Positions 1,273 through 14,674 of a DNA stretch of 18,332 bases are shown here, piece after piece. Positions within the stretch are counted from its first letter, which is position 1. Each line of letters starts with the position of its first letter. Made by a program: the position numbers and the translations under genes. Location: IMG/VR virus record IMGVR_UViG_3300006217_000549, positions 1 through 18,332 of that record; one strand, given 5' to 3'. This DNA is from a virus. The notes below the pieces were generated by a model. That model ran no database searches, was not told the DNA's origin, and saw only the letters and a list, made by a program, of their open reading frames with translations.

Positions 1273-1692
1273 TCACAGAATATCTTCCTTGAAAATTGGG
1301 AAAATCGGGAATATGTCATTCCAGTCAAAGATAATCTCGTCTGCTGAATATTCCGCTCCTTGACAAAGCGTAAACTTCTTGGATGTTTTCTTCAGTTCTT
1401 TACAAAGGGATATCACCTCGTCACGCGTGAGATGGGAAAGCCAGTAATCGTGGACCACGCACTCCAAATCCAACTGAAGCTGTTCCGCAATTGCCTGTGC
1501 TTCCCTCTCCATATCATCTCCCTGCTCGATGTCTCCGTCAAAAATCAGCCCAAAACCCAAGTAGGATTTATTGTTGTCGAAGTCTTCCTGATATTTCTCT
1601 TCCAAAGCGCTGACGCCATCCGGGTCAATCTGCATTGCGGCCTCTGTGACACCCCTGCCAAACAATCTATCTCTTAAAGCACAAATATCCAT
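1273..1692 (-). CDS. strongly acidic hypothetical protein (139 aa), opposite strand to the surrounding operon
   Basis: The track ORF 1273-1713 is trimmed to the ATG at 1692, which has GGAGGTG 6 nt upstream. 31 D/E versus 13 K/R residues by my count. Confidence 0.65.
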   Translation of the reverse strand: MDICALRDRLFGRGVTEAAMQIDPDGVSALEEKYQEDFDNNKSYLGFGLIFDGDIEQGDDMEREAQAIAEQLQLDLECVVHDYWLSHLTRDEVISLCKELKKTSKKFTLCQGAEYSADEIIFDWNDIFPIFPIFKEDIL

Positions 1693-1731
1693 ATTACGCA
1701 CCTCCAAGCTCAAATTATATTACCATCCTCT

Positions 1732-1762
1732 CCGATTTTCAACAGTATATTTAGAAAATCGG
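1732..1762. promoter_or_regulatory. perfect 9-bp inverted repeat CCGATTTTC-N13-GAAAATCGG in a divergent intergenic region (operator-like)
   Basis: Arms at 1732-1740 and 1754-1762 were read directly. It lies between divergent genes 1273-1692(-) and 1806-2393(+). No adjacent T-run, so it is not a typical terminator. Confidence 0.35.
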
Positions 1763-1805
1763 TAAATCTTGAACATATGTTACTAAAAAAGATTGGAGAA
1801 AGTCA

Positions 1806-2393
1806 ATGTTATACTTAGCAATGAACCTTCCTGATATTATCATGTTGGACTCAGGAAAGATGGCCTTGTTCCCTGTTCCGCTGACCAAAAAAGGAAACCC
1901 TTACAGGATTGGCGATGTTATAGGAATCAAGGAGCCATTCAAAAAAATCAGATGTCACATTGACAGATATGAAAACGGCAAGACAATCGACGAAGACAAT
2001 ATTATTGGTGTAAGGTATCGGTTTGACAGTGCTATGGCCTGGGAGTGTGGAGTGACACCACCTAATAATGAGTTCTACTTATCCACTATCGCAGATGCAG
2101 AGCATTGGAGTGCTGCGAGAACCATGCCTGAATTTGCTGTGCGCCGTCACATTCATATTGTAAAGGCAGAAGAAAAGTCTCTCGAGGAATTTACTGACGA
2201 AGATATCTGTCAGATGCACTTGAATTATAACCCTACTGATAATCAACAAACCATCATCAAGGAATATCTGCCAGCAAAAAACCACGAGCTTTTTCTGGAC
2301 TGGTGGAGAAATCACTATAAAGCCACTATGAAAGAATGCGATACCCCTATGGCGATAGCCCTTTACATAAAACCAGCAGAAACATTGAGGTGA
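1806..2393 (+). CDS. hypothetical phage protein (195 aa)
   Basis: ATG with TGGAGAA SD. The N-terminal segment ..YRIGDVIGIKEPF.. is vaguely ASCH/PUA-like, but I cannot support a family call. Confidence 0.65.
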   Translation: MLYLAMNLPDIIMLDSGKMALFPVPLTKKGNPYRIGDVIGIKEPFKKIRCHIDRYENGKTIDEDNIIGVRYRFDSAMAWECGVTPPNNEFYLSTIADAEHWSAARTMPEFAVRRHIHIVKAEEKSLEEFTDEDICQMHLNYNPTDNQQTIIKEYLPAKNHELFLDWWRNHYKATMKECDTPMAIALYIKPAETLR

Positions 2394-2395
2394 CT

Positions 2396-2614
2396 ATGAG
2401 AGAGTACGGATGCAGAATTCTTTTGGAGCACAAACAAGCTCAACGCTTTTTGGAGGAAGCAATGCACCCAGATATAGAGGTACTGCGGAGAAGAGACACT
2501 TTTCTTGCAAGACTTGATGATGAGTGTCCGATATGGATAGAGGGTTCAGAAATTGTAATGGAAATTCCCGATGTGGATGTAACTGCTTTAATGGACTTTG
2601 AGGGTACTTTATAA
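2396..2614 (+). CDS. hypothetical phage protein (72 aa)
   Basis: The track ORF 2336-2614 is trimmed to the ATG at 2396, preceded by GAGGTG. This avoids a long overlap with the upstream gene. Confidence 0.55.
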   Translation: MREYGCRILLEHKQAQRFLEEAMHPDIEVLRRRDTFLARLDDECPIWIEGSEIVMEIPDVDVTALMDFEGTL

Positions 2615-2988
2615 TGCGTATTATTATTGCTGGCGGAAGGGATTTCAACAACTACTCCGAACTGGCTAAAACAATGGATTACCTGCTATCAAATATCACA
2701 GACGATATCACAATCGTATGTGGGAAAGCCCGTGGAGCAGACACGCTTGGAGAGCAATACGTCAAAGAAAAAGGATATGCAATTCTCTACTTCCCTGCTG
2801 ATTGGAACAAATACGGACGTTCTGCTGGTTTTATCCGTAATGAACAAATGGCTAAAAACGCTGATGCTCTGGCAGCATTTTGGGATGGCCAGAGCGTTGG
2901 AACCAGACACATGATAGAGACGGCCAAGAAAAATAATCTGCTTGTCCGGATACATCGCTACAAAGCCAAACAAAACAAAGGTGAATGA
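2614..2988 (+). CDS. DUF2493 / SLOG-family protein (124 aa)
   Basis: MRIIIAGGRDF..IVCGKARGADTLGEQY..FPADW..YGRSAGFIRNEQM..ADALAAFWDGQSVGTRHMI matches the DUF2493 SLOG pattern (Rossmann-like GGR..G.A.GAD..G..RN..M). The start overlaps the previous stop (TAATG). Confidence 0.75.
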   Translation: MRIIIAGGRDFNNYSELAKTMDYLLSNITDDITIVCGKARGADTLGEQYVKEKGYAILYFPADWNKYGRSAGFIRNEQMAKNADALAAFWDGQSVGTRHMIETAKKNNLLVRIHRYKAKQNKGE

Positions 2989-2997
2989 GATATTGAG

Positions 2998-3402
2998 GTG
3001 ATGCAGTTGAGTAAAATCGATACATATATTGCTATGCGAGAATCTGGCATGACATATGAAAGCATTGCACAACAATTTGGAGTCAGCCGCCAAGCAGTAT
3101 TTGATGCCATCAAGAAAAAATCAAAGCCATACAAAATAAGTCCTTCTTCTGTAATTTACAGTGGCCTCCGGACCTGGATGAGCAAAAACCGTGTATCCGT
3201 ATCTAAAATGGAAAGAGAAACTGGTTTACGACTCAGATGTGGCTTAAAGGCAGGAACTTTAGACAACGACACCAAGAAAAAGATTGCAGAATATACAAAG
3301 TCAAATTATGAAGAACTTTTTTATGATGCAATAAAGGGCCCAATTGGTGTTTTTAATATCAGTGAAAATAATGTGGACATTATGGAGAGGTGTATAAAAT
3401 GA
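2998..3402 (+). CDS. helix-turn-helix DNA-binding protein (about 131-134 aa)
   Basis: The N-terminus ..RESGMTYESIAQQFGVSRQAVFDAIKK is a typical sigma-70 region-4/resolvase-type HTH. The start is ambiguous: GTG 2998, ATG 3001, or TTG 3007 (6 nt after GAGGTG). Confidence 0.6.
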   Translation: MMQLSKIDTYIAMRESGMTYESIAQQFGVSRQAVFDAIKKKSKPYKISPSSVIYSGLRTWMSKNRVSVSKMERETGLRLRCGLKAGTLDNDTKKKIAEYTKSNYEELFYDAIKGPIGVFNISENNVDIMERCIK

Positions 3403-3617
3403 CAATGCAAAACGCACAAGCGGAATACTTTGCGTTTATGGGAGACTCTTGCGAATCTGGGCCAGTGCCAAAGCTCAACGAAATTGAGCATAGTATCGAA
3501 GAATGTAAGGCAATGCTTGCTCATGCTATCTATCTGACTGACAAAAACGAAATCAGCTTTTGGAGACGAATGCTCCAAACATCCAAAGTGCAAAGAAGGG
3601 AGCATTTAGCAACCTAA
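3399..3617 (+). CDS. hypothetical phage protein (72 aa)
   Basis: ATG 3399 is preceded by GGAGAGGTG and overlaps the upstream TGA (ATGA). Confidence 0.55.
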   Translation: MTMQNAQAEYFAFMGDSCESGPVPKLNEIEHSIEECKAMLAHAIYLTDKNEISFWRRMLQTSKVQRREHLAT

Positions 3618-3728
3618 CTGTTTTGTGATGGCGAGTGGCGAACAAGTTACACTGAAGCCTTTGCGGATTGTAGGTCAATCTAATGGTAGTCAAGAGGTGT
3701 CGGGTATGTTGCTCAATACATACTCTTC

Positions 3729-4466
3729 ATGCACTATTCAGTCGGTTGGTCTGGCGGAAAAGATAGCACAGCAAGCATTATACTAGCTCATATACACAAT
3801 GAACCCGTTGATAGTATTGTGTTTGTAGAAGTGATGTTTGATATAGCAAATGGAATCAGTGGGGAGAACCCACAACATATTGACTTCATAAAGAATAAAG
3901 CAATACCATTATTTGAATCATGGGGATATAAAGTTGATGTCGTTCATTCTGACCGTGATTTTCTATCCGTATTCAACAGAGTGATTGAAAGACCTACAAA
4001 GCATCTTGAACACAAAGGTCTGAAATACGGGTTCCCTCCAAATGGTCTTTGCTCAATAAAGCGAGACTGTAAAATGAGAGCGATCAAGTCATATTATAAG
4101 AACATTGCAGAAGAGTACATTCAGTATGTTGGAATTGCGGTTGACGAGCCGAAGCATCTTGCAAGACTCCATAAAACAAAAAACATTTCTCTACTTGAAA
4201 AAAATGGCCTGACAGAATCTAATGCAATGCAATTATGTAAAGAATGCGATTTATTAAGTCCAACTTATAAATTATCCAAAAGAGGTGGATGCTGGTTCTG
4301 CCCTAATGCAAAGTTGACAGAACACAGAGACATACGAAATCGATATCCAGAAGTATGGAAGCAGTACATCAATCTTGAGTGTGAAAAGGTTGCGTTTGAT
4401 AAATGGAATACGTTTTCAGATAAGACTCTTCACGATATAGAGCAAATATTATCAAAAGAAGAATAA
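3729..4466 (+). CDS. phosphoadenosine phosphosulfate (PAPS) reductase-family PP-loop ATPase, phage type
   Basis: PP-loop motif WSGGKDSTA at residues 7-15 and the C-terminal GGCWFCP cysteine pair typical of phage PAPS-reductase-like proteins. There is no SD at the proper distance from the ATG (see findings). Confidence 0.85.
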   Translation: MHYSVGWSGGKDSTASIILAHIHNEPVDSIVFVEVMFDIANGISGENPQHIDFIKNKAIPLFESWGYKVDVVHSDRDFLSVFNRVIERPTKHLEHKGLKYGFPPNGLCSIKRDCKMRAIKSYYKNIAEEYIQYVGIAVDEPKHLARLHKTKNISLLEKNGLTESNAMQLCKECDLLSPTYKLSKRGGCWFCPNAKLTEHRDIRNRYPEVWKQYINLECEKVAFDKWNTFSDKTLHDIEQILSKEE

Positions 4467-4478
4467 AAGGAAGGTTTT

Positions 4479-4853
4479 ATGAAGATTATTGATTTTCTTA
4501 AATTGGTAAGAAGTATTCCTTCGCAAAATAGGGCTCCAGCTATTAGAGATGAGGACTTGGAGACTTTGATTAACCAAATCGACATGGCAAAGGATGATGA
4601 CCGATATAGCCCATATCCAATTCTTGGGACCAGACCGCAGCAATACATTCCTCTCGGGCTACTTACGATACACGAGGGACAGGCGTGGAAGAATCATATG
4701 CAATCTCTTAGTCAACTGGCAGAAAGAGGTGGGCTGAGTTGGGCCGAGGCGCTTGCTATTATAGAAGGCAAGAAATGGAAAGACGCAGAACACGATGAAA
4801 ATACTGCTGAGGTAATTATCAGAAAAATGGTGTCTGAGTACATGAAAGGCTGA
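4479..4853 (+). CDS. hypothetical phage protein (124 aa)
   Basis: ATG with AAAGGAAGG SD. No family recognised. Confidence 0.65.
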   Translation: MKIIDFLKLVRSIPSQNRAPAIRDEDLETLINQIDMAKDDDRYSPYPILGTRPQQYIPLGLLTIHEGQAWKNHMQSLSQLAERGGLSWAEALAIIEGKKWKDAEHDENTAEVIIRKMVSEYMKG

Positions 4854-4860
4854 TTATTGC

Positions 4861-5148
4861 ATGAATCTGAAATTAAAACCATGTCCATTCTGCGGTGGAG
4901 CCGGTAGAGTAAGAGCATTCAAAAATGGATACAGGATTGTTTGTAAAAACTGCGGTTCCACCTCACGTTACTTATTTATTCAGCCGTGGCATGACAGCAA
5001 ATCAGTTGCTCAGTGTCAAGCTGCAAAAGCATGGAATTCCCGTATAAAGCAATTTTCCAGTCCTTGTGATTTATGTATGTATAATCCCCCGTCAAGTACA
5101 GATGGAAAACCGTGCAGTATGTGTCCCGCAGGCGCAATTCACAAATAA
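4861..5148 (+). CDS. lar: Lar-family restriction-alleviation-like zinc-ribbon protein with an extra C-terminal CxxC..PPSS..GKPCxxCP module
   Basis: LKPCPFCGG..VCKNCG..AAKAWNSR is the Lar-family (Rac prophage Lar-like) pattern. The C-terminal CDLCMYNPPSSTDGKPCSMCPAG is shared with ORF 9905-10195. Confidence 0.7.
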   Translation: MNLKLKPCPFCGGAGRVRAFKNGYRIVCKNCGSTSRYLFIQPWHDSKSVAQCQAAKAWNSRIKQFSSPCDLCMYNPPSSTDGKPCSMCPAGAIHK

Positions 5149-5161
5149 AAGAAAGGTTAAA

Positions 5162-5341
5162 ATGGTGACAAAAATGGCAGAGTTTTGCAGGAAATGTTTC
5201 ATCAGTCGTTTAATGCCCAGCAAATATGATATAGACCATATTGTAATGAGCGAGGACGAGGACTTTTGCGAAGGATGTATGAAGTGGGGAAAATATGTAG
5301 ACCACATTGATTGCTCCGAACGCAAAGAAAATAAAGAATAA
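5162..5341 (+). CDS. small zinc-finger protein (59 aa), paralog of the N-terminus of 8856-9188
   Basis: The track ORF is trimmed to ATG 5162 (AAAGAAAGG upstream). It has CRKC and CEGC pairs. It shares ..HIVMS.D..FCEGCM....YVDHID with 8856-9188, including 15-nt and 18-nt identical DNA blocks. Confidence 0.6.
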   Translation: MVTKMAEFCRKCFISRLMPSKYDIDHIVMSEDEDFCEGCMKWGKYVDHIDCSERKENKE

Positions 5342-5357
5342 AAAAAGGAAGATTGTT

Positions 5358-5861
5358 ATGTATCAGGAACGACGTAGCGTATTTGAAACAAACTCAAGCA
5401 GCACACACAGTATTTGCATCACGAAAGACACGAGAGCAGATCATTCATATCCGAAAAAGTTGGTTTTCCGTTTGGGGGAATTCGGATGGGAGCATGAAGA
5501 ACTTTTCACGCCGGAAGAGAAGGCTGCATACCTGTATACGAGCATCTTATCTCTTCAAACCAAAGAAGAAGCAGAGCGTTCTAAAAACAAAATTTTCGCT
5601 GTGCTTGGAGAGGTCGGAATCGACTGCGAATTTGAGCAAGCGGAGTATTGGGGAGATGGCTGGCTCAGTAATGGCTATGTAGATCATGCTGGCGATGGTG
5701 ACCATTATGATTTTGTCAATAAAACACTGAATAACCGAAACAGGCTGTTACGATACCTGTTCAGTGAGCAGAGCTTTGTTCTGACCGGAAATGATAATGA
5801 CGATTATGGTGTCGGTATTGATGTAGATTACCCGCATGAGGAATACTACAAGGGAAACTAA
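5358..5861 (+). CDS. uncharacterised protein with N-terminal VFETNSSSTHSI motif (167 aa)
   Basis: The track ORF is trimmed to ATG 5358 (AAAGGAAG SD). The motif is at residues 8-19. Later acidic/His-rich segments: GYVDHAGDGDHYDF and LTGNDNDDYG. Confidence 0.7.
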   Translation: MYQERRSVFETNSSSTHSICITKDTRADHSYPKKLVFRLGEFGWEHEELFTPEEKAAYLYTSILSLQTKEEAERSKNKIFAVLGEVGIDCEFEQAEYWGDGWLSNGYVDHAGDGDHYDFVNKTLNNRNRLLRYLFSEQSFVLTGNDNDDYGVGIDVDYPHEEYYKGN

Positions 5862-5881
5862 ATTTCAGGAGGAAAAATCAA

Positions 5882-6160
5882 ATGAAGCAAATCAGAAGAG
5901 GTGTCTTTGAGACCAACAGCAGCTCCACTCACAGCATTACAATCTGCACGCTGGAAGATTACGAAAAGTTTAAGAGAGGCGAACTTCTCTATGACAGATG
6001 GGAGGAAAAACTTGTTCCGGCAGACGCAGAGCATGTTTCCAGCGACGACTGTGAGACATACAAGGAATTTGGCAGATATCTTGAAACCTATGCTGAAGGA
6101 TTTAGAACACCAAGTGGTGACGAGATTGTTGCCTTCGGGTACTATGGCTACGACGGATAA
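5882..6160 (+). CDS. uncharacterised protein with the same N-terminal VFETNSSSTHSI motif (92 aa), short paralog
   Basis: AGGAGGAAAAA SD lies upstream. Residues 8-19 are identical to those of 5358-5861 although 7 of the 12 codons differ synonymously. Confidence 0.65.
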   Translation: MKQIRRGVFETNSSSTHSITICTLEDYEKFKRGELLYDRWEEKLVPADAEHVSSDDCETYKEFGRYLETYAEGFRTPSGDEIVAFGYYGYDG

Positions 6161-6176
6161 ACGAGGTGGTAGTGAA

Positions 6177-7106
6177 ATGAATCTTCTTGGTACATATCAG
6201 AACGGGAACTACACCGTAAAAATTTATAGTGACGGCACCAAAATCCGTAAAAACGACCTGGATTTTTTCAAGCCGGAGTTCCCGGAGTCCATGGATATCA
6301 AGATTACCAATCAATGCGACAAGTTGTGCAAGTTCTGCCATGAAGCGTCGGTTCCTGATGGACGGCATGGGGACGTTATGAACCTTCCGTTTCTGGAGAC
6401 GCTGCATCCATACACAGAACTGGCCATCGGAGGCGGCAATCCTTTGTCGCACCCCGACCTGATTCCATTCCTTGAAGGGCTGAAGGAACGCAAGCTGATT
6501 CCAAGTATGACGGCCAATCAAACGCATTTCCTGGAGAATATTCCTCTGTTATCGATGCTTTCTGAACGCGAACTTCTTTATGGCCTTGGAGTTTCCTTTA
6601 TTTCAGGCACACCCCAGGATGAATTGAACAGAATGATTGGCGCACTGGAGAAATTTCCGAACGCAGTAATCCACGTCATTAACGGCATTGTGTCCGTAGA
6701 GGAACTGCGTGCGCTCGCTTTCCATGATTTCAAGGTATTGATTCTTGGGTACAAGAAATTCCGGCGCGGAGCACATAACTGGGCAGAAGACGAAGAAGAG
6801 ATTGTATCAAGGCAGCGCAATCTGTACGACGAGCTTCCCGCCATCATCCAGTCTGGGTGGTTCCATACGGTCAGCTTTGATAACCTGGCCGTCAATCAGT
6901 TAGGTGTCCGGCGACTGATGGATAGTGCATCATGGGAACGTTTCTATATGGGAGACGACGGCAACTACACGATGTATGTGGACGCTGTAAACCGCGAATA
7001 TGCAGTCTGCTCGGTATCACAGGTACGGTATCCTCTGACGGATAACATCAAGGAAATGTTTGATACGGTTCTAAAAGAGCCAGAAAGGTACAGGGCAGAT
7101 AAGTAA
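6177..7106 (+). CDS. radical SAM protein (309 aa)
   Basis: The track ORF 5901-7106 is trimmed to ATG 6177 (GAGGTGG SD). It has the CX3CX2C cluster motif ITNQCDKLCKFCHE and a GGE-like motif IGGGNPLSHPDL. No C-terminal SPASM-type cysteines are present. Confidence 0.85.
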   Translation: MNLLGTYQNGNYTVKIYSDGTKIRKNDLDFFKPEFPESMDIKITNQCDKLCKFCHEASVPDGRHGDVMNLPFLETLHPYTELAIGGGNPLSHPDLIPFLEGLKERKLIPSMTANQTHFLENIPLLSMLSERELLYGLGVSFISGTPQDELNRMIGALEKFPNAVIHVINGIVSVEELRALAFHDFKVLILGYKKFRRGAHNWAEDEEEIVSRQRNLYDELPAIIQSGWFHTVSFDNLAVNQLGVRRLMDSASWERFYMGDDGNYTMYVDAVNREYAVCSVSQVRYPLTDNIKEMFDTVLKEPERYRADK

Positions 7107-7127
7107 TTCGCTTCAAGAGGAGATAAG

Positions 7128-7499
7128 ATGTCAAAATTGTTTGTGCTTACATTGATGGTATTCTGCCACATTGTAGACGACTATTATCTGCAAGGAGTTC
7201 TTGCATCAATGAAGCAGAAGAACTGGTGGACGCAAAATACTCCGGGAAAATTATACCGGTATGACTATATCGTAGCCCTGGTTATGCACGGGTTTAGCTG
7301 GACTTTTATGGTTATGCTTCCCATAGCGGCCTTATACAGTCTAAATCCACCGTATCTGTTTTATTGGTGTTTTACTCTGAATGTTGCGATACACGCTTTT
7401 ACTGACAATGTGAAAGCCAATTTGCGAACAATCAATCTTATTATGGACCAATCGGTACATATTGAGCAAATCATCCTTACATTTTTACTTCTGACTTAA
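7128..7499 (+). CDS. DUF3307-like integral membrane protein (123 aa)
   Basis: AGAGGAGA SD. It has 3-4 hydrophobic helices. HIVDDYYLQG near the N-terminus and AIHAFTDN later resemble the H..DF.lQ / H..D signature of DUF3307. Confidence 0.6.
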   Translation: MSKLFVLTLMVFCHIVDDYYLQGVLASMKQKNWWTQNTPGKLYRYDYIVALVMHGFSWTFMVMLPIAALYSLNPPYLFYWCFTLNVAIHAFTDNVKANLRTINLIMDQSVHIEQIILTFLLLT

Positions 7500-7518
7500 A
7501 AGGTTTGGTGGTGATGTA

Positions 7519-7761
7519 ATGGCAGAATATCATGTAGGCTGTGGCGCATTTGCAATCTATACGGGCACATTAAACAGCAGAAACAAAAATCTGTGGCAGA
7601 ACAAAACTGAATGCACAGACGAAGCACTTTGCGCTGTAAGGGACTATATGGTGCAGGAGCTTCTTGGCGGTATTGACTGCCGTAAAGCCACCTCAAGCGG
7701 CTACGAATGGACGCTGAAAGACGGACGCACAGTGGAGCTTAGAGTCACAATAAAAGATTGA
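7519..7761 (+). CDS. hypothetical phage protein (80 aa)
   Basis: ATG is preceded by TTTGGTGGTG. The N-terminus MAEYHVGCGAFAIYTGTLN looks like a conserved small phage protein, but I cannot name the family. Confidence 0.6.
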   Translation: MAEYHVGCGAFAIYTGTLNSRNKNLWQNKTECTDEALCAVRDYMVQELLGGIDCRKATSSGYEWTLKDGRTVELRVTIKD

Positions 7762-7762
7762 C

Positions 7763-7792
7763 TTGATTGTAAACTATTTATTTGGCTATGAT
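7763..7792 (+). promoter_or_regulatory. candidate sigma-70 promoter TTGATT-N18-TATGAT
   Basis: -35 at 7763-7768 and -10 at 7787-7792, in the 69-nt gap before gene 7831-8082. Called by eye only. Confidence 0.3.
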
Positions 7793-7830
7793 ATTGAATT
7801 TCCAAAATCCATAATGGAGGTATATCAATA

Positions 7831-8082
7831 ATGGAGTATGAAATTGTGAATGTATACGATAGGTTCTATGATGACCAATCAAAACAGAAAAATGCAAAAT
7901 TGCTTGGGAGATTTCAGTTAATAGAGCAGGTCAAGGAAAACGAGGAATGGAGCGAACTCTTCATTGGGCGTAATATAGACACTGGGGAACTCTGTCTTAT
8001 CGAAGGATACGAAGTGCGGTATATCGACAGTGGAACCGCTTATATTGTCTACCCTCTCAAAAACATCTGTGTGAAGGAATGA
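7831..8082 (+). CDS. hypothetical phage protein (83 aa)
   Basis: ATG with TGGAGGT SD. Confidence 0.6.
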   Translation: MEYEIVNVYDRFYDDQSKQKNAKLLGRFQLIEQVKENEEWSELFIGRNIDTGELCLIEGYEVRYIDSGTAYIVYPLKNICVKE

Positions 8083-8087
8083 TTTTT

Positions 8088-8282
8088 ATGAAGGCACAAC
8101 GAATTAAATTTATCTGCATACCAGATGCGATTATCTTTGCAGATAGCAGAAAGGAAGCCATTTCTATGATTCACAAAGGAGTGTTCGAAAAATGTAAAAA
8201 TGTCATCGTATCTCTTAGCAGCGGCGAGCAATTCAATTTGCATTCTCCGCGAAGCAAAGAATACTTTGGATTGAGGATTTAG
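8088..8282 (+). CDS. hypothetical phage protein (64 aa)
   Basis: The track ORF starts at 8079 (ATGA overlap), but GAAGGA sits 9 nt before ATG 8088, so 8088 is preferred. Confidence 0.45.
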   Translation: MKAQRIKFICIPDAIIFADSRKEAISMIHKGVFEKCKNVIVSLSSGEQFNLHSPRSKEYFGLRI

Positions 8283-8344
8283 CTTTATGGGACTTGTAAT
8301 AGAAATATCTGCGTATGTTGGAGTGTGCATACTCTGGTGCAAAA

Positions 8345-8668
8345 ATGAACGACGACTTAGAAATCATGTGTCGCCTTTCAAGAGCAATTATTGCATTTAG
8401 CTACGACGATATTTTCGCCACTCCCACATGGGAACAGATGATGGAATCGTATACGATGAAAGGTAAATCCATTAACAAGAAGTATAACTGCGTTTATGCA
8501 GAGGACGGTGATATATACCTGAATCCATTCTTTGGGGATTTGTGGGTTGTTGATGGAAAATCGTTCATCAAAATAAATAACGGATATGCTATTGATATTA
8601 ACGAGCCTGAAGGATTCATCAAAGTAGGTCATATCAATGGTGTTGTCAACAAACGAATGAAAGGCTGA
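8345..8668 (+). CDS. hypothetical phage protein (107 aa)
   Basis: The track ORF 8315-8668 has an uncertain start (8315 or 8345; weak SDs for both). Confidence 0.5.
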   Translation: MNDDLEIMCRLSRAIIAFSYDDIFATPTWEQMMESYTMKGKSINKKYNCVYAEDGDIYLNPFFGDLWVVDGKSFIKINNGYAIDINEPEGFIKVGHINGVVNKRMKG

Positions 8669-8675
8669 TTTTATT

Positions 8676-8831
8676 TTGAAACAGGAATCATGGATTGCTC
8701 GAATTATAAATCGACTGTTAGAGCGTCTTGGAATAATCAAAATGTATGGAATTAGCAAAGAGGATATGTGCAAAGGTGCGCAATCTATTTGCAATAGAAA
8801 TTGTGATTCTTGCGCATGGAAAAGTGAATGA
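8676..8831 (+). CDS. possible small Cys-rich protein (51 aa, TTG start)
   Basis: Below the track's size cut-off. TTG 8676 lies 10 nt after GAAAGG. The translation ..MCKGAQSICNRNCDSCAWKSE fills an otherwise empty 187-nt gap in a tightly packed operon. Confidence 0.3.
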   Translation: MKQESWIARIINRLLERLGIIKMYGISKEDMCKGAQSICNRNCDSCAWKSE

Positions 8832-8855
8832 AAGGTTAATTTGGTGGTGGTATAA

Positions 8856-9188
8856 ATGGCAGAATTGTGTTTGAAATGTTTCCTTGAAACTTGGCGTCCA
8901 AACGCATATGACCGTGCCCATATTGTAATGAGCAAAGACAATGAGTTTTGCGAAGGATGTATGGATTGCGTTCCGTATGTAGACCATATCGACCCGTCTG
9001 ATTTGCGGCGCACTCCAACGGTAGCAGACTTTGTTCAGGTAGTGGTTCCAGAAATAAAGGCTGGGCGTAAAATTGCCTGCACAGAATGCGGTGCCACTTT
9101 TGAAGATGATGATTTGGCTTTTGCGCATGAAGTCGGTGAATGTCCATACTGCCACACACAAGTCAGGGCGCTTTGGATGAGAGAATAA
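8856..9188 (+). CDS. multi-zinc-ribbon protein (110 aa); N-terminus paralogous to 5162-5341
   Basis: TTTGGTGGTG lies upstream. It has CLKC, CEGC, CTEC and CPYC pairs, and shares ..HIVMS.D..FCEGCM with 5162-5341. Confidence 0.65.
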   Translation: MAELCLKCFLETWRPNAYDRAHIVMSKDNEFCEGCMDCVPYVDHIDPSDLRRTPTVADFVQVVVPEIKAGRKIACTECGATFEDDDLAFAHEVGECPYCHTQVRALWMRE

Positions 9189-9201
9189 TTTGGTGACGTG
9201 T

Positions 9202-9642
9202 ATGGTAAATGTACTGTTTGATAGGCTGTTGGATATGTCTGGAATTGATACAAAAGAAGTATGGTGTTGGCCCGACTCACAGCCATTTTCTCTTGAAGAT
9301 GTTTTGGAACAAAAGAAAATCGGACTCTTAGGGGATAAAACACCGTATGGAGATACATGGAGGCACCCAGTAAAAGAATCTCGTGATAGAGGATATCATA
9401 TAGCAAGGATAATTTACTTTATGGAGAATCCGCAAGAAATAGATGGAATCGAAGTAGACAATCCTTGTTTTGATAATGGTATTTTACCTGGATGTAAAAT
9501 TATTGATGGACGGCATAGAGTAGCAGCAGGAATTTTAATTGGCTTGAAAACTGTAAAAATTGAATATGGTGGTCGGTCTGATATAGAAGACTACTTAATG
9601 GGTATAAGCGAAGAACGACCGGAAGAAATTCTAACTTTATAA
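9202..9642 (+). CDS. ParB/sulfiredoxin-fold (ParB-like nuclease domain) protein
   Basis: KIIDGRHRVAAGILIGL is the ParB N-terminal-domain DGxHR signature. There is no HTH or partition-type C-terminus. The start could be TTG 9190, GTG 9193 or ATG 9202. Confidence 0.7.
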   Translation: MVNVLFDRLLDMSGIDTKEVWCWPDSQPFSLEDVLEQKKIGLLGDKTPYGDTWRHPVKESRDRGYHIARIIYFMENPQEIDGIEVDNPCFDNGILPGCKIIDGRHRVAAGILIGLKTVKIEYGGRSDIEDYLMGISEERPEEILTL

Positions 9643-9666
9643 AAGATTAGTTTGGTGGTGAGAACT

Positions 9667-9867
9667 ATGTTACAAAAGAAAAGTCTGTACTGTTTTGAGT
9701 GTGGTAAAACAACACCGCATTCTTAAATCGGGAGCAAATCAATGTATGAGGGAACTGGTCTTGCCCGTATTATTATGGCCGCTGCTTCATTTGGTATGTC
9801 AGAAACATCATGGGCAGACAAGTATTGGCAGTGTGAAGTTTGCGGTAACATCAAAAGGCATGGTTAA
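9667..9867 (+). pseudogene. zinc-ribbon gene interrupted by an in-frame TAA (9724-9726)
   Basis: ATG 9667 (TTTGGTGGTG upstream) gives MLQKKSLYCFECGKTTPHS, then TAA. The same frame continues IGSKSMYEGTGLARIIMAAASFGMSETSWADKYWQCEVCGNIKRHG to TAA 9865-9867. One CxxC knuckle lies on each side of the stop. Confidence 0.5.
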
Positions 9868-9904
9868 TAAAATAAAGTTTTCATAAAAAGTAGGAGGTTT
9901 TCTA

Positions 9905-10195
9905 ATGAATTGTGGCATATGCAAAAAGACCGATGGAATGTGTTACGCAAGCTACCCGCCTCAAGTCAGGTGTACCATTACAGGAAAATATCATCAATAT
10001 AATGATGAATGCGACGTGCCCGATAAGACTATGGAAAAGAGGGGTAAGTTAGCTGGATTTCTCACTGAAGAACTTTTGGAAGAAATTCGGCGGAGGCCAG
10101 GAGAGTCCGACCCATGTGAATTGTGTGCGTACTATCCTCCATCCAGTCTGGGCGGGAAACCATGTTCCGTATGTCCTGCTAGTGGGATAAGATAA
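9905..10195 (+). CDS. Cys-rich zinc-ribbon protein (96 aa) sharing the C-terminal module of 4861-5148
   Basis: AGGAGG SD. The C-terminal CELCAYYPPSSLGGKPCSVCPAS parallels CDLCMYNPPSSTDGKPCSMCPAG of the Lar-like protein. Confidence 0.65.
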   Translation: MNCGICKKTDGMCYASYPPQVRCTITGKYHQYNDECDVPDKTMEKRGKLAGFLTEELLEEIRRRPGESDPCELCAYYPPSSLGGKPCSVCPASGIR

Positions 10196-10264
10196 CTTCA
10201 TCTGTTTCCTTCTGGGACGCAGGGACAGTCTGAATCTATTTTGCAGGCGATATGTAAAAGGATA

Positions 10265-10295
10265 CCAGCCGTCGCACGTAATGCAGAACGGCTGG
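10265..10295. terminator. hairpin between convergent transcription units (CCAGCCGT-N15-ACGGCTGG)
   Basis: Perfect 8-bp GC-rich stem read directly. There is no clean U-tract on either strand, so terminator function is uncertain. Confidence 0.3.
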
Positions 10296-10337
10296 CAGAC
10301 AGACTTTCGCCGAATTTACGGAGTTGGAAACTACTCA

Positions 10338-10610
10338 TTACTGAGCAGCCGGGCGGACGATCACCCTTTCTTTAATACATTCTGATTTGAAGTAATCCCG
10401 TACAGTTCCATGCAATGATCTAGCCGTTTGGTCAAAAAATGTATCCATGTCACATTCAGCATCATCACTGGTATGTTCCCGATAATAACAGAATTTGACC
10501 GCCTGGATTACTTTGTCGATTTGACCGCATAAATTTTCGCAACACTTACTTCTATTGGTACAAGAACTTGTCCTTACCTCAGAAGCGTTTGTGGAATTTC
10601 TATTGGTCAT
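10338..10610 (-). CDS. hypothetical Cys-rich protein (90 aa)
   Basis: ATG ORF without its own SD. A strong SD (AAGAGGTG) instead serves a 17-codon upstream ORF (10653-10600) that overlaps this start. Confidence 0.45.
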   Translation of the reverse strand: MTNRNSTNASEVRTSSCTNRSKCCENLCGQIDKVIQAVKFCYYREHTSDDAECDMDTFFDQTARSLHGTVRDYFKSECIKERVIVRPAAQ

Positions 10611-10766
10611 GTTTACCCAAGCTGTTACTACACAAATTGTGTGGATGAGTCATTTCTGCTCACCTCTTACAGTCACCTGCAAGTTCAGACTGTGCCTTCA
10701 TCCCAGAGGGATGCTCCGTGTCCAGTCGTTAGATATTCAGTATCTACAAACAAAGCAGACTCTCTA

Positions 10767-13396: not shown

Positions 13397-14641
13397 TTAC
13401 AATTTATAACAAATCGAACACAATCCCAAGTTGATTTTTCCTGGGCCTCCATATTCAGCAAATTCAGAACTCTGTTTTACCTCCCCACAACACTCACATT
13501 GAATCCAGCGGCGTGTAAACTTATCATATGTAGGCATTTCCGCACAAGGGTTGAAAATCTTTTTTATTCTATTTTCCTCAGCGAGAAGTTCTTCTGCACT
13601 TGCCGTCTCTGGCCGTCTTATTTCAAGTTCAGGAATTTGTAGTGTTGTAATAGCCGGACGGTTTGCAGCCGTGCTACGACTTTGAAATTTCGCAAACATT
13701 TGCTGCTGTTCTATATACATTTGTCTGTTTCGTTTTCTCTTTTCCTCTTCTTTTTTTATATTCCAATCATTACGCTCTTGAATTTTTGCTATTTTATTCT
13801 GTAAAATTTTTGGGTCCTTATAGAAATCTTTATGTGATTGAATTCCTGATTTAGCTATACATAAAAAATAATCCTGTTCCCCAACATTAAAAGGACAATA
13901 TACACAATTTGTCCAGTGTACAGTATATCTACCCTGATATTTTCTAATATGAATTGGGCATTCCCAATCAGGGTCTTCTGCATCATGAGCCTTTTCAACG
14001 AAACGTTTTTTCCATTTGTCAATCAATTCACTTCTAATCCATTTTTGCTCTATGTCTTTAGATGCTATAAATTTTCTCAAATTATCCGGAAAAAAGAAAC
14101 TCTCATCGTCAATATTTGGGAAATAGCATAATAAAGACGAATAGTTTTCATTTCTTGATTCCTTTTCAAAGTTTTGTAAATCTTCTTTTGAATAATAGTA
14201 GTCAAACTCCAATAATATCCGTAATTTGCTTCCAGAGACAGTCAAAAACAGATTAGGAGGATACTGTAATGGTTCACAACTAAATTCTACATTTTCTATA
14301 GAGACATATCGACCTGGCTTCAACAGGTCACCACGTCTCCATGCAGGAAAAGAAAGTATAATTGGTGGGAGGTAAAAGCGGCGCAATTCGTCAAGGATAC
14401 CTGCAACTGCCTTATAAATTGAAACTTCGCTTGCATATAAGCAATCATAATTGGATACATGAGCGAAGTGGTGTTTCCTGACTGAACCTTTTCTTGCTTC
14501 CAACGGCTTGTTGCAAGCGCAGCAAACACAACCACATTTTTCTCCGCTTACTACCTCAGAAATATGTCTAATATTACCTGTAACAGAATCTTTTCCAAAC
14601 AGTATATTATGCGCGGTTCTCTTTTTTACATTGTTCCCCAT
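13397..14641 (-). CDS. CoiA-like protein with additional Cys/His clusters, a coiled coil and a C-terminal zinc ribbon (414 aa)
   Basis: The track ORF is trimmed to ATG 14641 (AGGAGAA SD). CVCCACNKPLEARKGSVRKHHFAHVSNYDC matches the CoiA N-terminal C..C..G....HFAH....C signature. Further features are CPIH..CVYCP, the K/E-rich segment IKKEEEKRKRNRQ, and the C-terminal CECCG..CSIC. Confidence 0.7.
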   Translation of the reverse strand: MGNNVKKRTAHNILFGKDSVTGNIRHISEVVSGEKCGCVCCACNKPLEARKGSVRKHHFAHVSNYDCLYASEVSIYKAVAGILDELRRFYLPPIILSFPAWRRGDLLKPGRYVSIENVEFSCEPLQYPPNLFLTVSGSKLRILLEFDYYYSKEDLQNFEKESRNENYSSLLCYFPNIDDESFFFPDNLRKFIASKDIEQKWIRSELIDKWKKRFVEKAHDAEDPDWECPIHIRKYQGRYTVHWTNCVYCPFNVGEQDYFLCIAKSGIQSHKDFYKDPKILQNKIAKIQERNDWNIKKEEEKRKRNRQMYIEQQQMFAKFQSRSTAANRPAITTLQIPELEIRRPETASAEELLAEENRIKKIFNPCAEMPTYDKFTRRWIQCECCGEVKQSSEFAEYGGPGKINLGLCSICYKL

Positions 14642-14674
14642 AATATTCTCCTGCAATTTTCAATCTATTTTATA

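Follow-up and report, generated by a model that had tools for sequence, protein, structure and literature searches.

Why should two adjacent genes for otherwise dissimilar proteins begin with the same short peptide, directly upstream of a gene for a radical S-adenosylmethionine (SAM) enzyme? The question is raised by a stretch of viral DNA, IMG/VR record IMGVR_UViG_3300006217_000549, whose 18,332 nucleotides (nt) are referred to here as the window. On its plus strand lie in succession the genes for protein A (positions 5358-5861; 167 amino acids (aa), isoelectric point (pI) 4.7), protein B (5882-6160; 92 aa, pI 4.65) and the radical-SAM enzyme, rSAM (6177-7106; 309 aa). A begins MYQERRSVFETNSSSTHSI (residues 1-19, 5358-5414) and B begins MKQIRRGVFETNSSSTHSI (residues 1-19, 5882-5938); these segments, which we term the tag, consist of a basic lead followed at residues 8-19 by a block, VFETNSSSTHSI (V-F-E-T-N-S-S-S-T-H-S-I), common to the two proteins (nt 5379-5414 in A, 5903-5938 in B). 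A previous reading of the window, made from the sequence only, had picked out this 12-residue block and seen that 7 of its 12 codons are synonymous variants; the open reading frames (ORFs) and a codon comparison confirm both points, 26 of the 36 nt being identical. The block is not a product of chance, as it is the sole source of 7-mers shared between ORFs: six-frame translation of the window gives 229 ORF segments, in which only six 7-mers are common to different ORFs, and all six tile the block.

Co-occurrence of tagged proteins and rSAM

The sequence-only reading offered, as one hypothesis, that the motif proteins are substrates or partners of rSAM, and suggested a survey of gene neighbourhoods in phage and prophage genomes to see whether the two occur together. 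The survey finds them together from either direction. Among IMG/VR loci fetched by similarity to A, rSAM lies on the same strand in 76 of 80, mostly within 1 kb, and two of the four loci without it end directly after A. Among loci fetched by similarity to rSAM, at least one ORF with the strict form of the tag (search pattern R-x3-[FY]-E-[TS]-N-S-S) is present upstream on the same strand in 73 of 79; three of the six that remain have less than 700 nt of upstream sequence. Reduction of the rSAMs at 85% identity leaves 41 lineages. In all 41 there is a tagged ORF whose best match is A, and in most a B-type ORF, usually situated between A and rSAM; most of these loci were retrieved through A, so that the informative direction is the presence of rSAM. 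No other neighbour is conserved across the 41 lineages, the next "families" being antisense shadow ORFs. This near-obligate two-way co-occurrence, together with a clade in which A and rSAM are fused (see below), upholds the proposed partnership. Gene neighbourhoods thus show that the tagged proteins belong with rSAM in a single functional unit, A being the near-universal partner of the enzyme.

Among GenBank phages A is found in 24 records, nine of them Microcystis phages of the Ma-LMM01 group and 15 Lak megaphages, and a close relative of rSAM is found in the same 24. A search of 185,579 species genomes yielded only 60 loci, mostly on metagenome-assembled genome (MAG) contigs of phage-like size, and 50 of the 60 carry rSAM; this rarity, and the size of the contigs, mean that the module is essentially phage-borne. 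In Ma-LMM01 the order is gp130, an A homologue with VFETNSSSTHSI and an FFYKGN tail, then gp129, which is untagged, and gp128, the rSAM. All three belong to expression cluster 2, middle subclass B5, and are expressed at similar levels (PMC5780444, text and supplementary file 4). Subclass B5 is the middle class that contains replication and nucleotide-metabolism genes, and a middle promoter has been mapped 5' of gp130, with none for gp129 or gp128 (PMC5780444).

Two Gracilibacteria-type contigs (L024, L097) have an A homologue and no rSAM detectable within 6 kb, ORFs having been called with translation table 11. Their hosts may use genetic code 25, and table-11 calling may have broken the rSAM gene.

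The tag is shared by unrelated proteins

The general form of the tag is M-x2-3-R-x3-F-E-T-N-S-S-S-x-H-S. To describe its constraint we used 292 unique tagged proteins, setting apart the residues imposed by the search pattern. Residues not so imposed are nearly fixed: R(-5) is present in 100%, F(-1) in 99% and S(+5) in 97%, while T(+1), N(+2) and S(+4) are each present in 100% although the pattern permitted alternatives. Position in the protein is likewise fixed, the tag Glu being residue 10, 11 or 12 in 287 of the 288 ORFs that have a single in-frame upstream ATG; the median distance to the in-frame stop upstream is 15 codons. What follows the tag is not fixed. When stripped of the tag, 388 unique proteins of 33-343 aa fall into 27 BLAST clusters, A-type (194 proteins), B-type (138) and 25 minor ones, and no Pfam domain was found in ten minor-cluster representatives. 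A locus may have from one to about ten tagged genes (about ten in L135 and L142, six in L128/L129 and L187). All the tagged proteins are acidic (median pI 4.56, Asp plus Glu about 20%, aromatic residues about 15%), in spite of the basic lead of the tag. On these comparisons the tag is an autonomous, N-terminal and extremely constrained element borne by unrelated protein bodies.

Even the variable positions of the tag carry a signal. Of 14 such flanking positions, 6.93 on average agree between the A and the B of one locus, as against 5.43 +/- 0.13 when loci are shuffled; the observed figure is reached in 0 of 2000 shuffles. At the same time 49.5% of the identical tag core codons differ synonymously between A and B within a locus, which argues against recent gene conversion. 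The within-locus agreement of the flanks would thus fit co-adaptation of A and B to a common partner rather than recent conversion.

The largest arrays, of about ten tandem tagged paralogs at approximately 1390-10750 of Prevotella and Fibrobacter MAG contigs (L135, L142), include several tags with unusual endings (SSSAHC, SSSMHC). The sole rSAM-like ORF there is a weak match (E about 1e-8) at the edge of the locus.

Fusion of A to rSAM

In a sister clade the two partners are a single protein. Gp146 of Salmonella phage Arash, 476 aa long and annotated "methyltransferase", starts MYLTQIRYGFATNSSSSHS; the A family aligns with its residues 3-141, including GYIDH and ILGGNDN (hhalign probability 97.6%, E 3.7e-12), and the rSAM family with its residues 170-451 (probability 99.1%, E 5e-19). 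It has 726 fused relatives at E<=1e-5, of which the best 120 are 435-570 aa long and cover 92-100% of the query; Methylobacterium, a Thermoanaerobaculia MAG and a Promethearchaeota MAG are among the sources. The fused genes stand in phage- or plasmid-like contexts, without a conserved neighbour, and their N-terminal 180 residues match no Pfam or NCBIfam family. Their tag reads R-x-G-[FLH]-A-T-N-S-S-S-S-H-S. A further variation is seen in Thermus phage YS40, where a 317-aa protein beginning ...LTSMTNSSSASM lies directly upstream of a related rSAM. From the fused clade and YS40 it follows that the most deeply conserved core of the tag is T-N-S-S-S, and that the unit at its smallest comprises rSAM and a tagged A domain.

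The clades differ at the site corresponding to the SAM-binding "GGE" motif. In the window rSAM its counterpart is GGGNPL (residues 85-90, 6429-6446), with Asn for Glu, and in split-clade enzymes generally this site is GGGN (72), GGGD (25), NGND (14) or a rarer variant, almost never with Glu, while their tags have an invariant Glu (F-E-T-N). In the fused proteins the converse is seen: the site is GGGEP in 108 of 120 and the tag has Ala (F-A-T-N). The tag Glu may, on this pattern, substitute in trans for the missing Glu of GGE, though the correlation is one of clades, involving one or two evolutionary transitions, and the 25 GGGD variants coexist with a Glu tag.

The radical-SAM enzyme matches no known stand-alone family

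In its model the window rSAM starts with a three-stranded sheet (residues 3-25, with Y7, N9, D19, G20, T21, K22 and R24 invariant), followed by a TIM-barrel-like core with a single CxxxCxxC site for a [4Fe-4S] cluster, CDKLCKFC (residues 47-54, 6315-6338). C47, C51 and C54, the motif by which the superfamily is recognised, do not vary among 30 homologues, whereas C277, the one further Cys in the window protein, gives way to Ser or other residues in homologues. With only three conserved Cys, the family has no SPASM cysteines, as first read, and identity with a SPASM or twitch maturase is rejected. Against Pfam PF04055 the window protein scores 22.5 bits (cut-off 29.5), a threshold passed by many of its close homologues and by each of the ten fused relatives scored, and it matches phrog_16999, "Fe-S oxidoreductase", at E 1e-45. 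Relatives are numerous, at least 7182 90%-identity clusters at E<=1e-3, some of which may be other rSAMs.

That the enzyme might belong to a known stand-alone family, such as NrdG or QueE, was an outcome the sequence-only reading had kept in view. We reject identity with NrdG, QueE, MoaA and viperin: scores are far below the curated cut-offs, amounting to 12-21 bits for NCBIfam radical-SAM families (MoaA, viperin, ScmE, HxsC and others; cut-offs 170-650) and to about 23 bits at most for NrdG2 (cut-off 131). The other half of that outcome, a neighbourhood that is not conserved, is likewise not observed. PADLOC pVip gave 19.9 bits (E 1e-4) over residues 41-159, the cluster-proximal part of the core. 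The same phage has a separate NrdD/NrdG pair upstream, distinct from rSAM.

The AlphaFold2 (AF2) model of rSAM is confident (predicted local distance difference test, pLDDT, 91.7), and Foldseek matches it to radical-SAM structures at probability 1.00. The best match is SuiB (E 1.3e-7, template-modelling (TM) score 0.53-0.56), followed by BlsE, EpeE, SpeY, TigE, AbmM, QueE and PqqE; as modelled, the enzyme thus appears structurally closest to peptide-modifying maturases, at modest TM. No PqqD or RiPP recognition element (RRE; RiPP, ribosomally synthesised and post-translationally modified peptide) was matched by Pfam in rSAM, A, B or the fused proteins, and the module therefore lacks what marks an RRE-dependent RiPP maturase.

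On a Paludibacter MAG contig (L131:3629-5704) the rSAM homologue is 691 aa long, owing to an intein with a LAGLIDADG-type endonuclease. This insert breaks the ELA|C...HN|CGGGNPL motif at the SAM-binding "GGE" position, and its location exactly in GGGNPL points to a functionally constrained site.

A and B match no characterised family, and A no known fold

Neither A nor B proved to belong to a characterised family, the other result that would have told against the initial proposal: no Pfam, NCBIfam or PADLOC match was found for either, and A matches only phrog_28997, of unknown function (E 3.6e-23). A itself is widespread, with 1226 relatives at 90% clustering; its family profile matches 4111 50%-identity cluster representatives at E<=1e-3 and 2068 at 1e-10, the weaker of which may include other tagged paralogs. 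After the tag comes an alpha/beta domain, modelled by AF2 with good confidence (pLDDT 87.4, predicted TM score 0.85) except for residues 1-12, where pLDDT is below 50; S15-T22 lie within the first strand of the folded domain. The family alignment shows conservation of D109-H110, T143-G-N-D-N147 and the C-terminal Y158, H160, E162, Y164 and K165.

None of this leads to a known fold. Foldseek against the PDB gave no match at E<=1e-3 (best TM 0.25), against BFVD it gave only an uncharacterised member of A's own family, and the A-family hidden Markov model (HMM) found only noise among PDB sequences; a known fold is therefore rejected for A. Nor was likeness to an RRE seen at the level of the fold in Foldseek. 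Motif resemblances to Toprim (E...DxD) and to metallophosphoesterases (GNHD) are backed by no profile or fold match.

In B the same tag is followed by an acidic middle that varies and by a conserved C-terminal TTPSGDxxVAFGxYGxD (F85, G86, Y88 and G89 in B). That the two proteins are barely alignable outside the block, and that their Tyr/Gly-rich tails are worthy of notice, had both been remarked at the outset. Alignment of the family profiles by hhalign extends over columns 1-27 only (probability 99.2%), and the tails prove to be real, conserved family motifs, that of A comprising the five C-terminal residues just listed. B homologues match B at phmmer E values of about 1e-20 to 1e-30 and A at about 1e-4. 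The possibility that B is a truncated A, suggested by FGxYGxD and the EFGWE hairpin, is rejected, because hhalign aligns the tag only; on these alignments B is a family of its own.

What might the tag do?

We tentatively favour, at rather less than an even chance, the view that the tag enters the active site of rSAM and is itself the site of radical chemistry, whether modification or activation. The flexible N-terminal tag would be a handle that admits each tagged protein to the enzyme; the 5'-deoxyadenosyl radical derived from SAM would act on the Thr-Asn-Ser-Ser-Ser stretch; and this would leave the protein either modified post-translationally or holding a bound activated or radical state. 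The first client or partner, and an obligatory one, would be A, which is fused to the enzyme in the sister clade; B and the remaining tagged paralogs would be extra clients, and the matured acidic proteins would act in the middle (replication) phase of infection. We infer the physical contact and the radical chemistry at the tag from four features: one enzyme is encoded with many tagged candidate clients; a run of small polar residues is invariant; the tag is flexible and fixed at the N-terminus; and the enzyme has kinship with peptide maturases. The low pLDDT of residues 1-12, in an otherwise confident model, was counted in favour of the tag as a recognition or reaction motif. A more ambitious version can be framed, to which we give a realistic though minor chance: a new radical-SAM "tag-and-modify" system, in which a portable 17-19-residue tag would be served by an rSAM without RRE or auxiliary clusters, and modification or a protein radical would be placed on Thr-Asn-Ser-Ser-Ser of unrelated, new-fold acidic effectors for host takeover or anti-defence.

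Several points weigh against chemistry on the tag. Fusions of enzyme to substrate are unusual, while fusions of subunits are common. Inspection of six loci, of the fused type or related to it, showed no clearly tag-like ORF besides the fused protein (in YS40, besides the divergent gp162), and the absence of further tagged ORFs there implies that the primary role of the tag is intrinsic to the A-rSAM unit. The polar constellation of A (DH, TGNDN, H-E-Y-K) suggests, as far as conservation is a guide, that A may itself be catalytic or ligand-binding. The structural likeness of rSAM to maturases is modest (TM about 0.5) and extends to small-molecule enzymes (BlsE, SpeY, QueE); the enzyme also lacks the RRE and auxiliary clusters used by most radical-SAM maturases that crosslink or oxidise peptides. 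Finally, the agreement of tags within a locus could stem in part from differences in rate between lineages rather than from co-adaptation.

The main rival is a multi-subunit radical enzyme with an external substrate, to which we give a real though minor share of belief. A would then be a non-substrate subunit or domain, involved in substrate binding or a second catalytic step, and the tag an element for docking or for completing the active site; B and the other paralogs would be exchangeable subunits that retarget or regulate the enzyme, and the substrate a nucleotide, nucleic acid, metabolite or host protein. The large fusion clade, with its loci devoid of further tagged ORFs, and the A-type ORF accompanying all 41 non-redundant rSAMs are well accommodated by such an arrangement, as are the conserved Asp, His, Asn, Glu and Lys of A. 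In several phages, moreover, the module lies among genes of replication and nucleotide metabolism: DNA polymerase III, primase and NrdD in L088, NrdD/NrdG and dUTPase in L002 (a contig identical to the window) and primase in Ma-LMM01. None of these nucleotide-metabolism neighbours is conserved with the module, however, and no nucleic-acid- or nucleotide-binding domain was detectable in A, B or ten other paralogs, the tagged proteins being without exception strongly acidic (median pI as above). The exchange of Glu between GGE site and tag would also fit an active-site-completing element, but it rests on one or two transitions, and the 25 GGGD enzymes of the split clade retain an acidic Asp. Docking, for its part, explains poorly the near-total invariance of T-N-S-S-S across unrelated bodies.

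A second alternative, which we hold to be unlikely, is that A and B are separate small enzymes of a pathway, processing a product or precursor of rSAM, with a tag that never enters rSAM and serves instead as the catalytic loop of a new hydrolase- or transferase-like fold using Ser/His/Asp chemistry. Enzymes of consecutive steps are often clustered as genes, AF2 sets S15-T22 in the first strand of the folded A domain, and A does have an invariant Ser-rich loop with His17, in addition to D109-H110, G-N-D-N and H160, motifs that loosely recall the SGNH blocks GDS, GxND and DxxH. Their order is not that of SGNH enzymes: DH precedes GNDN in A, whereas the SGNH order is GDS (I), GxND (III), DxxH (V). 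Identity of A with an SGNH/GDSL hydrolase is rejected, there being no Lipase_GDSL match in Pfam, no match among PDB sequences and no Foldseek TM above 0.25; the wider Pfam search was equally negative. B, with its 92 aa, and 25 other clusters have the tag without the other motifs of A, and a catalytic loop leaves unexplained why the tag should keep a fixed distance from the N-terminus.

The last alternative starts from the internal proteins of phage T4, which have a 10-residue capsid-targeting sequence cut after hydrophobic-x-Glu. That the tag is a packaging or sorting signal of this kind, MKQIRRGVFE ending at residue 10, delivering acidic effectors into the virion with rSAM linked for some other reason, we judge highly improbable: a Glu at residue 10-12 preceded by V/T-F, and variable tandem arrays of acidic tagged paralogs, are as expected, but T-N-S-S-S-x-H is invariant beyond the putative cut site, the linkage and fusion to rSAM go unexplained, the module is not beside head or protease genes, its expression in Ma-LMM01 is of the middle (replication) class, and Arash gp146 is missing from a very inclusive particle proteome of 116 proteins (PMC10585845).

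Comparison with known systems

Several known systems pair a radical-SAM enzyme with client proteins, and the module resembles these in kind while failing the defining features of each. The RiPP maturases (SuiB/SuiA, EpeE/EpeX, PqqE/PqqA/PqqD, TigE) provide the best structural matches of the rSAM model and have a comparable layout, one enzyme gene beside one or several substrate genes whose products have a conserved N-terminal recognition segment and a variable remainder. Their PqqD/RRE partner may be encoded by a separate gene or fused to the N-terminus of the enzyme, as A may be. Unlike them, the module has neither an RRE/PqqD-like domain nor SPASM/twitch cysteines; in place of short peptides its "precursors" are acidic, folded proteins about 90-340 aa long; the conserved segment is the N-terminus itself and extends into the first strand; and the module is phage-borne.

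Glycyl-radical enzymes and their activases offer a single-cluster radical-SAM protein beside proteins with one short, extremely conserved motif of small residues. The spare-part protein GrcA/YfiD carries the radical loop only, much as B carries the tag only. The tag, however, has no Gly and is N-terminal rather than C-terminal, and no glycyl-radical enzyme barrel is present. A glycyl radical in the C-terminal YYKGN or GYDG is rejected as well, since the Gly of A varies (KSC, KE, KWN, KKN) and the tag is without Gly.

With the anaerobic sulfatase-maturating enzymes (anSME, AtsB) and the sulfatases, a radical-SAM enzyme acts on folded client enzymes, turning a Ser or Cys of a short, invariant motif close to their N-terminus into a catalytic residue, one maturase serving several paralogs. 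A and B have no C/S-x-P-x-R, nor are they of alkaline-phosphatase fold (no Pfam or Foldseek match), and rSAM has a single cluster site as against the three clusters of these maturases. The T4 internal proteins, already met, share with the module variable tandem phage proteins having an N-terminal sequence of roughly ten residues that ends hydrophobic-x-Glu; they differ in that the block of the module extends past the Glu and its genes are linked or fused to rSAM, not to head genes. A known defence or anti-defence component is rejected, PADLOC having no match for A, B or a DUF3307-like protein encoded downstream of rSAM.

The motif family and the gene combination had gone unrecognised at first reading, and so they stay: no curated family (Pfam, NCBIfam, PADLOC) covers them, only PHROGs of unknown or generic function, and a full-text literature search that included the tag motif strings found no paper on the module or the tag, on this rSAM clade or on the families of A and B. 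Together, the tagged proteins and rSAM are thus a conserved phage module without prior description in curated families, structures or the literature searched. It is seemingly among the larger unexplained radical-SAM families of phage genomes, spread over human-gut prophages, Lak megaphages, Microcystis bloom phages, Thermus phages and a culturable Salmonella phage. Genetic evidence favours a defined interaction of a 17-19-residue tag with the rSAM active site, on the part of proteins that have no family, known fold or literature; its solution could reveal new radical chemistry on Ser/Thr/Asn-rich segments, or a new architecture of radical enzyme, and would explain what is done by a set of genes retained, and expressed during replication, in phages whose hosts differ widely.

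Organisation and surroundings of the module

A fourth gene follows rSAM on the plus strand, encoding a DUF3307-like small membrane protein (7128-7499; 123 aa) that is an occasional accessory of the module. The sequence-only reading described the four genes as tightly spaced, each with its own Shine-Dalgarno (SD) sequence, a description that fits: they are separated by 20, 16 and 21 nt, and a purine-rich SD-like stretch precedes each gene (AAGGAAG for A, AGGAGG for B, GAGGTGG for rSAM, AGAGGAG for the DUF3307-like gene). No convincing terminator is seen between any of the four. Matches to a sigma-70-like promoter at 3300-10300 of the window number 7, fewer than the 18.6 +/- 4.1 expected from shuffles; their scarcity fits a single long co-directional transcription unit.

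Other parts of that reading fared less well. Its DUF3307 label falls short of the Pfam threshold (PF11750, 21.7 bits against a cut-off of 23, over profile positions 1-106 of 127), while gaining support from phrog_2470, "membrane protein" (E 4.8e-12). Its inclusion of this protein in the set fails: across 230 loci, the module has a DUF3307-like homologue next to it at L110 and L199/L200 and a weak one at L208, but nowhere else, so that outside this phage the pairing recurs in only about three lineages. The association it saw with PAPS-reductase-like (3'-phosphoadenosine-5'-phosphosulfate reductase), Lar-like and dUTPase genes finds no support either, none being conserved with the module; the PAPS-reductase-like, Lar-like, 124-aa and DUF7446 genes recur at zero to four other loci each. 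We therefore reject DUF3307, PAPS-reductase-like, Lar, 124-aa and DUF7446 proteins as members, and regard these genes as simply adjacent in this phage or, at the most, as accessories of particular lineages. The dUTPase placed in the operon is only partly right: the window holds a C-terminal fragment only (39-179), and the full gene is on the identical contig L002.

The setting is a temperate-phage region, with PP-loop/PAPS-reductase-like, Lar-like and YAcAr/SLOG proteins; the window also encodes a serine recombinase, a tyrosine integrase and a CHAP+SLH endolysin. Identical contigs, such as L002, extend upstream of the window region to NrdD/NrdG and the complete dUTPase. There (L002:1-2772) nrdD is apparently split by an ORF for an HNH endonuclease, in the order NRDD piece, HNH_3, second NRDD piece, NrdG; this looks like an intron or homing-endonuclease insertion. 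In the gut-phage lineage L088 (10414-11529) a NifS-like cysteine desulfurase (Aminotran_5) is encoded one 113-aa gene downstream of rSAM, with a DNA methylase after it, and may supply Fe-S clusters for the module.

Some other genes of the window deserve mention. The PP-loop protein (3729-4466; SGGKDS) matches phrog_424, "PAPS reductase" (E 3e-30), and PADLOC SspD (E 1.6e-11), and has no Pfam family at E<=0.1. Two small Cys-rich proteins (5162-5341 and 8856-9188) are paralogs, MAEFCRKCF...FCEGCM...YVDHID and MAELCLKCF...FCEGCM...YVDHID, related at phmmer E 1e-16 as found on the identical contig; neither matches a family. Lar-like proteins (PF14354) also form a paralogous pair (4861-5148 and 9905-10195), with a common Cys-rich C-terminal tail (PCDLCMYNPPSSTDGKPCSMCPAG and PCELCAYYPPSSLGGKPCSVCPAS). 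On the minus strand (13397-14656), between the genes for the serine recombinase and the CHAP+SLH endolysin, is encoded a 419-aa protein with a CoiA_N-like zinc-ribbon N-terminus (PF25164, E 9e-7).

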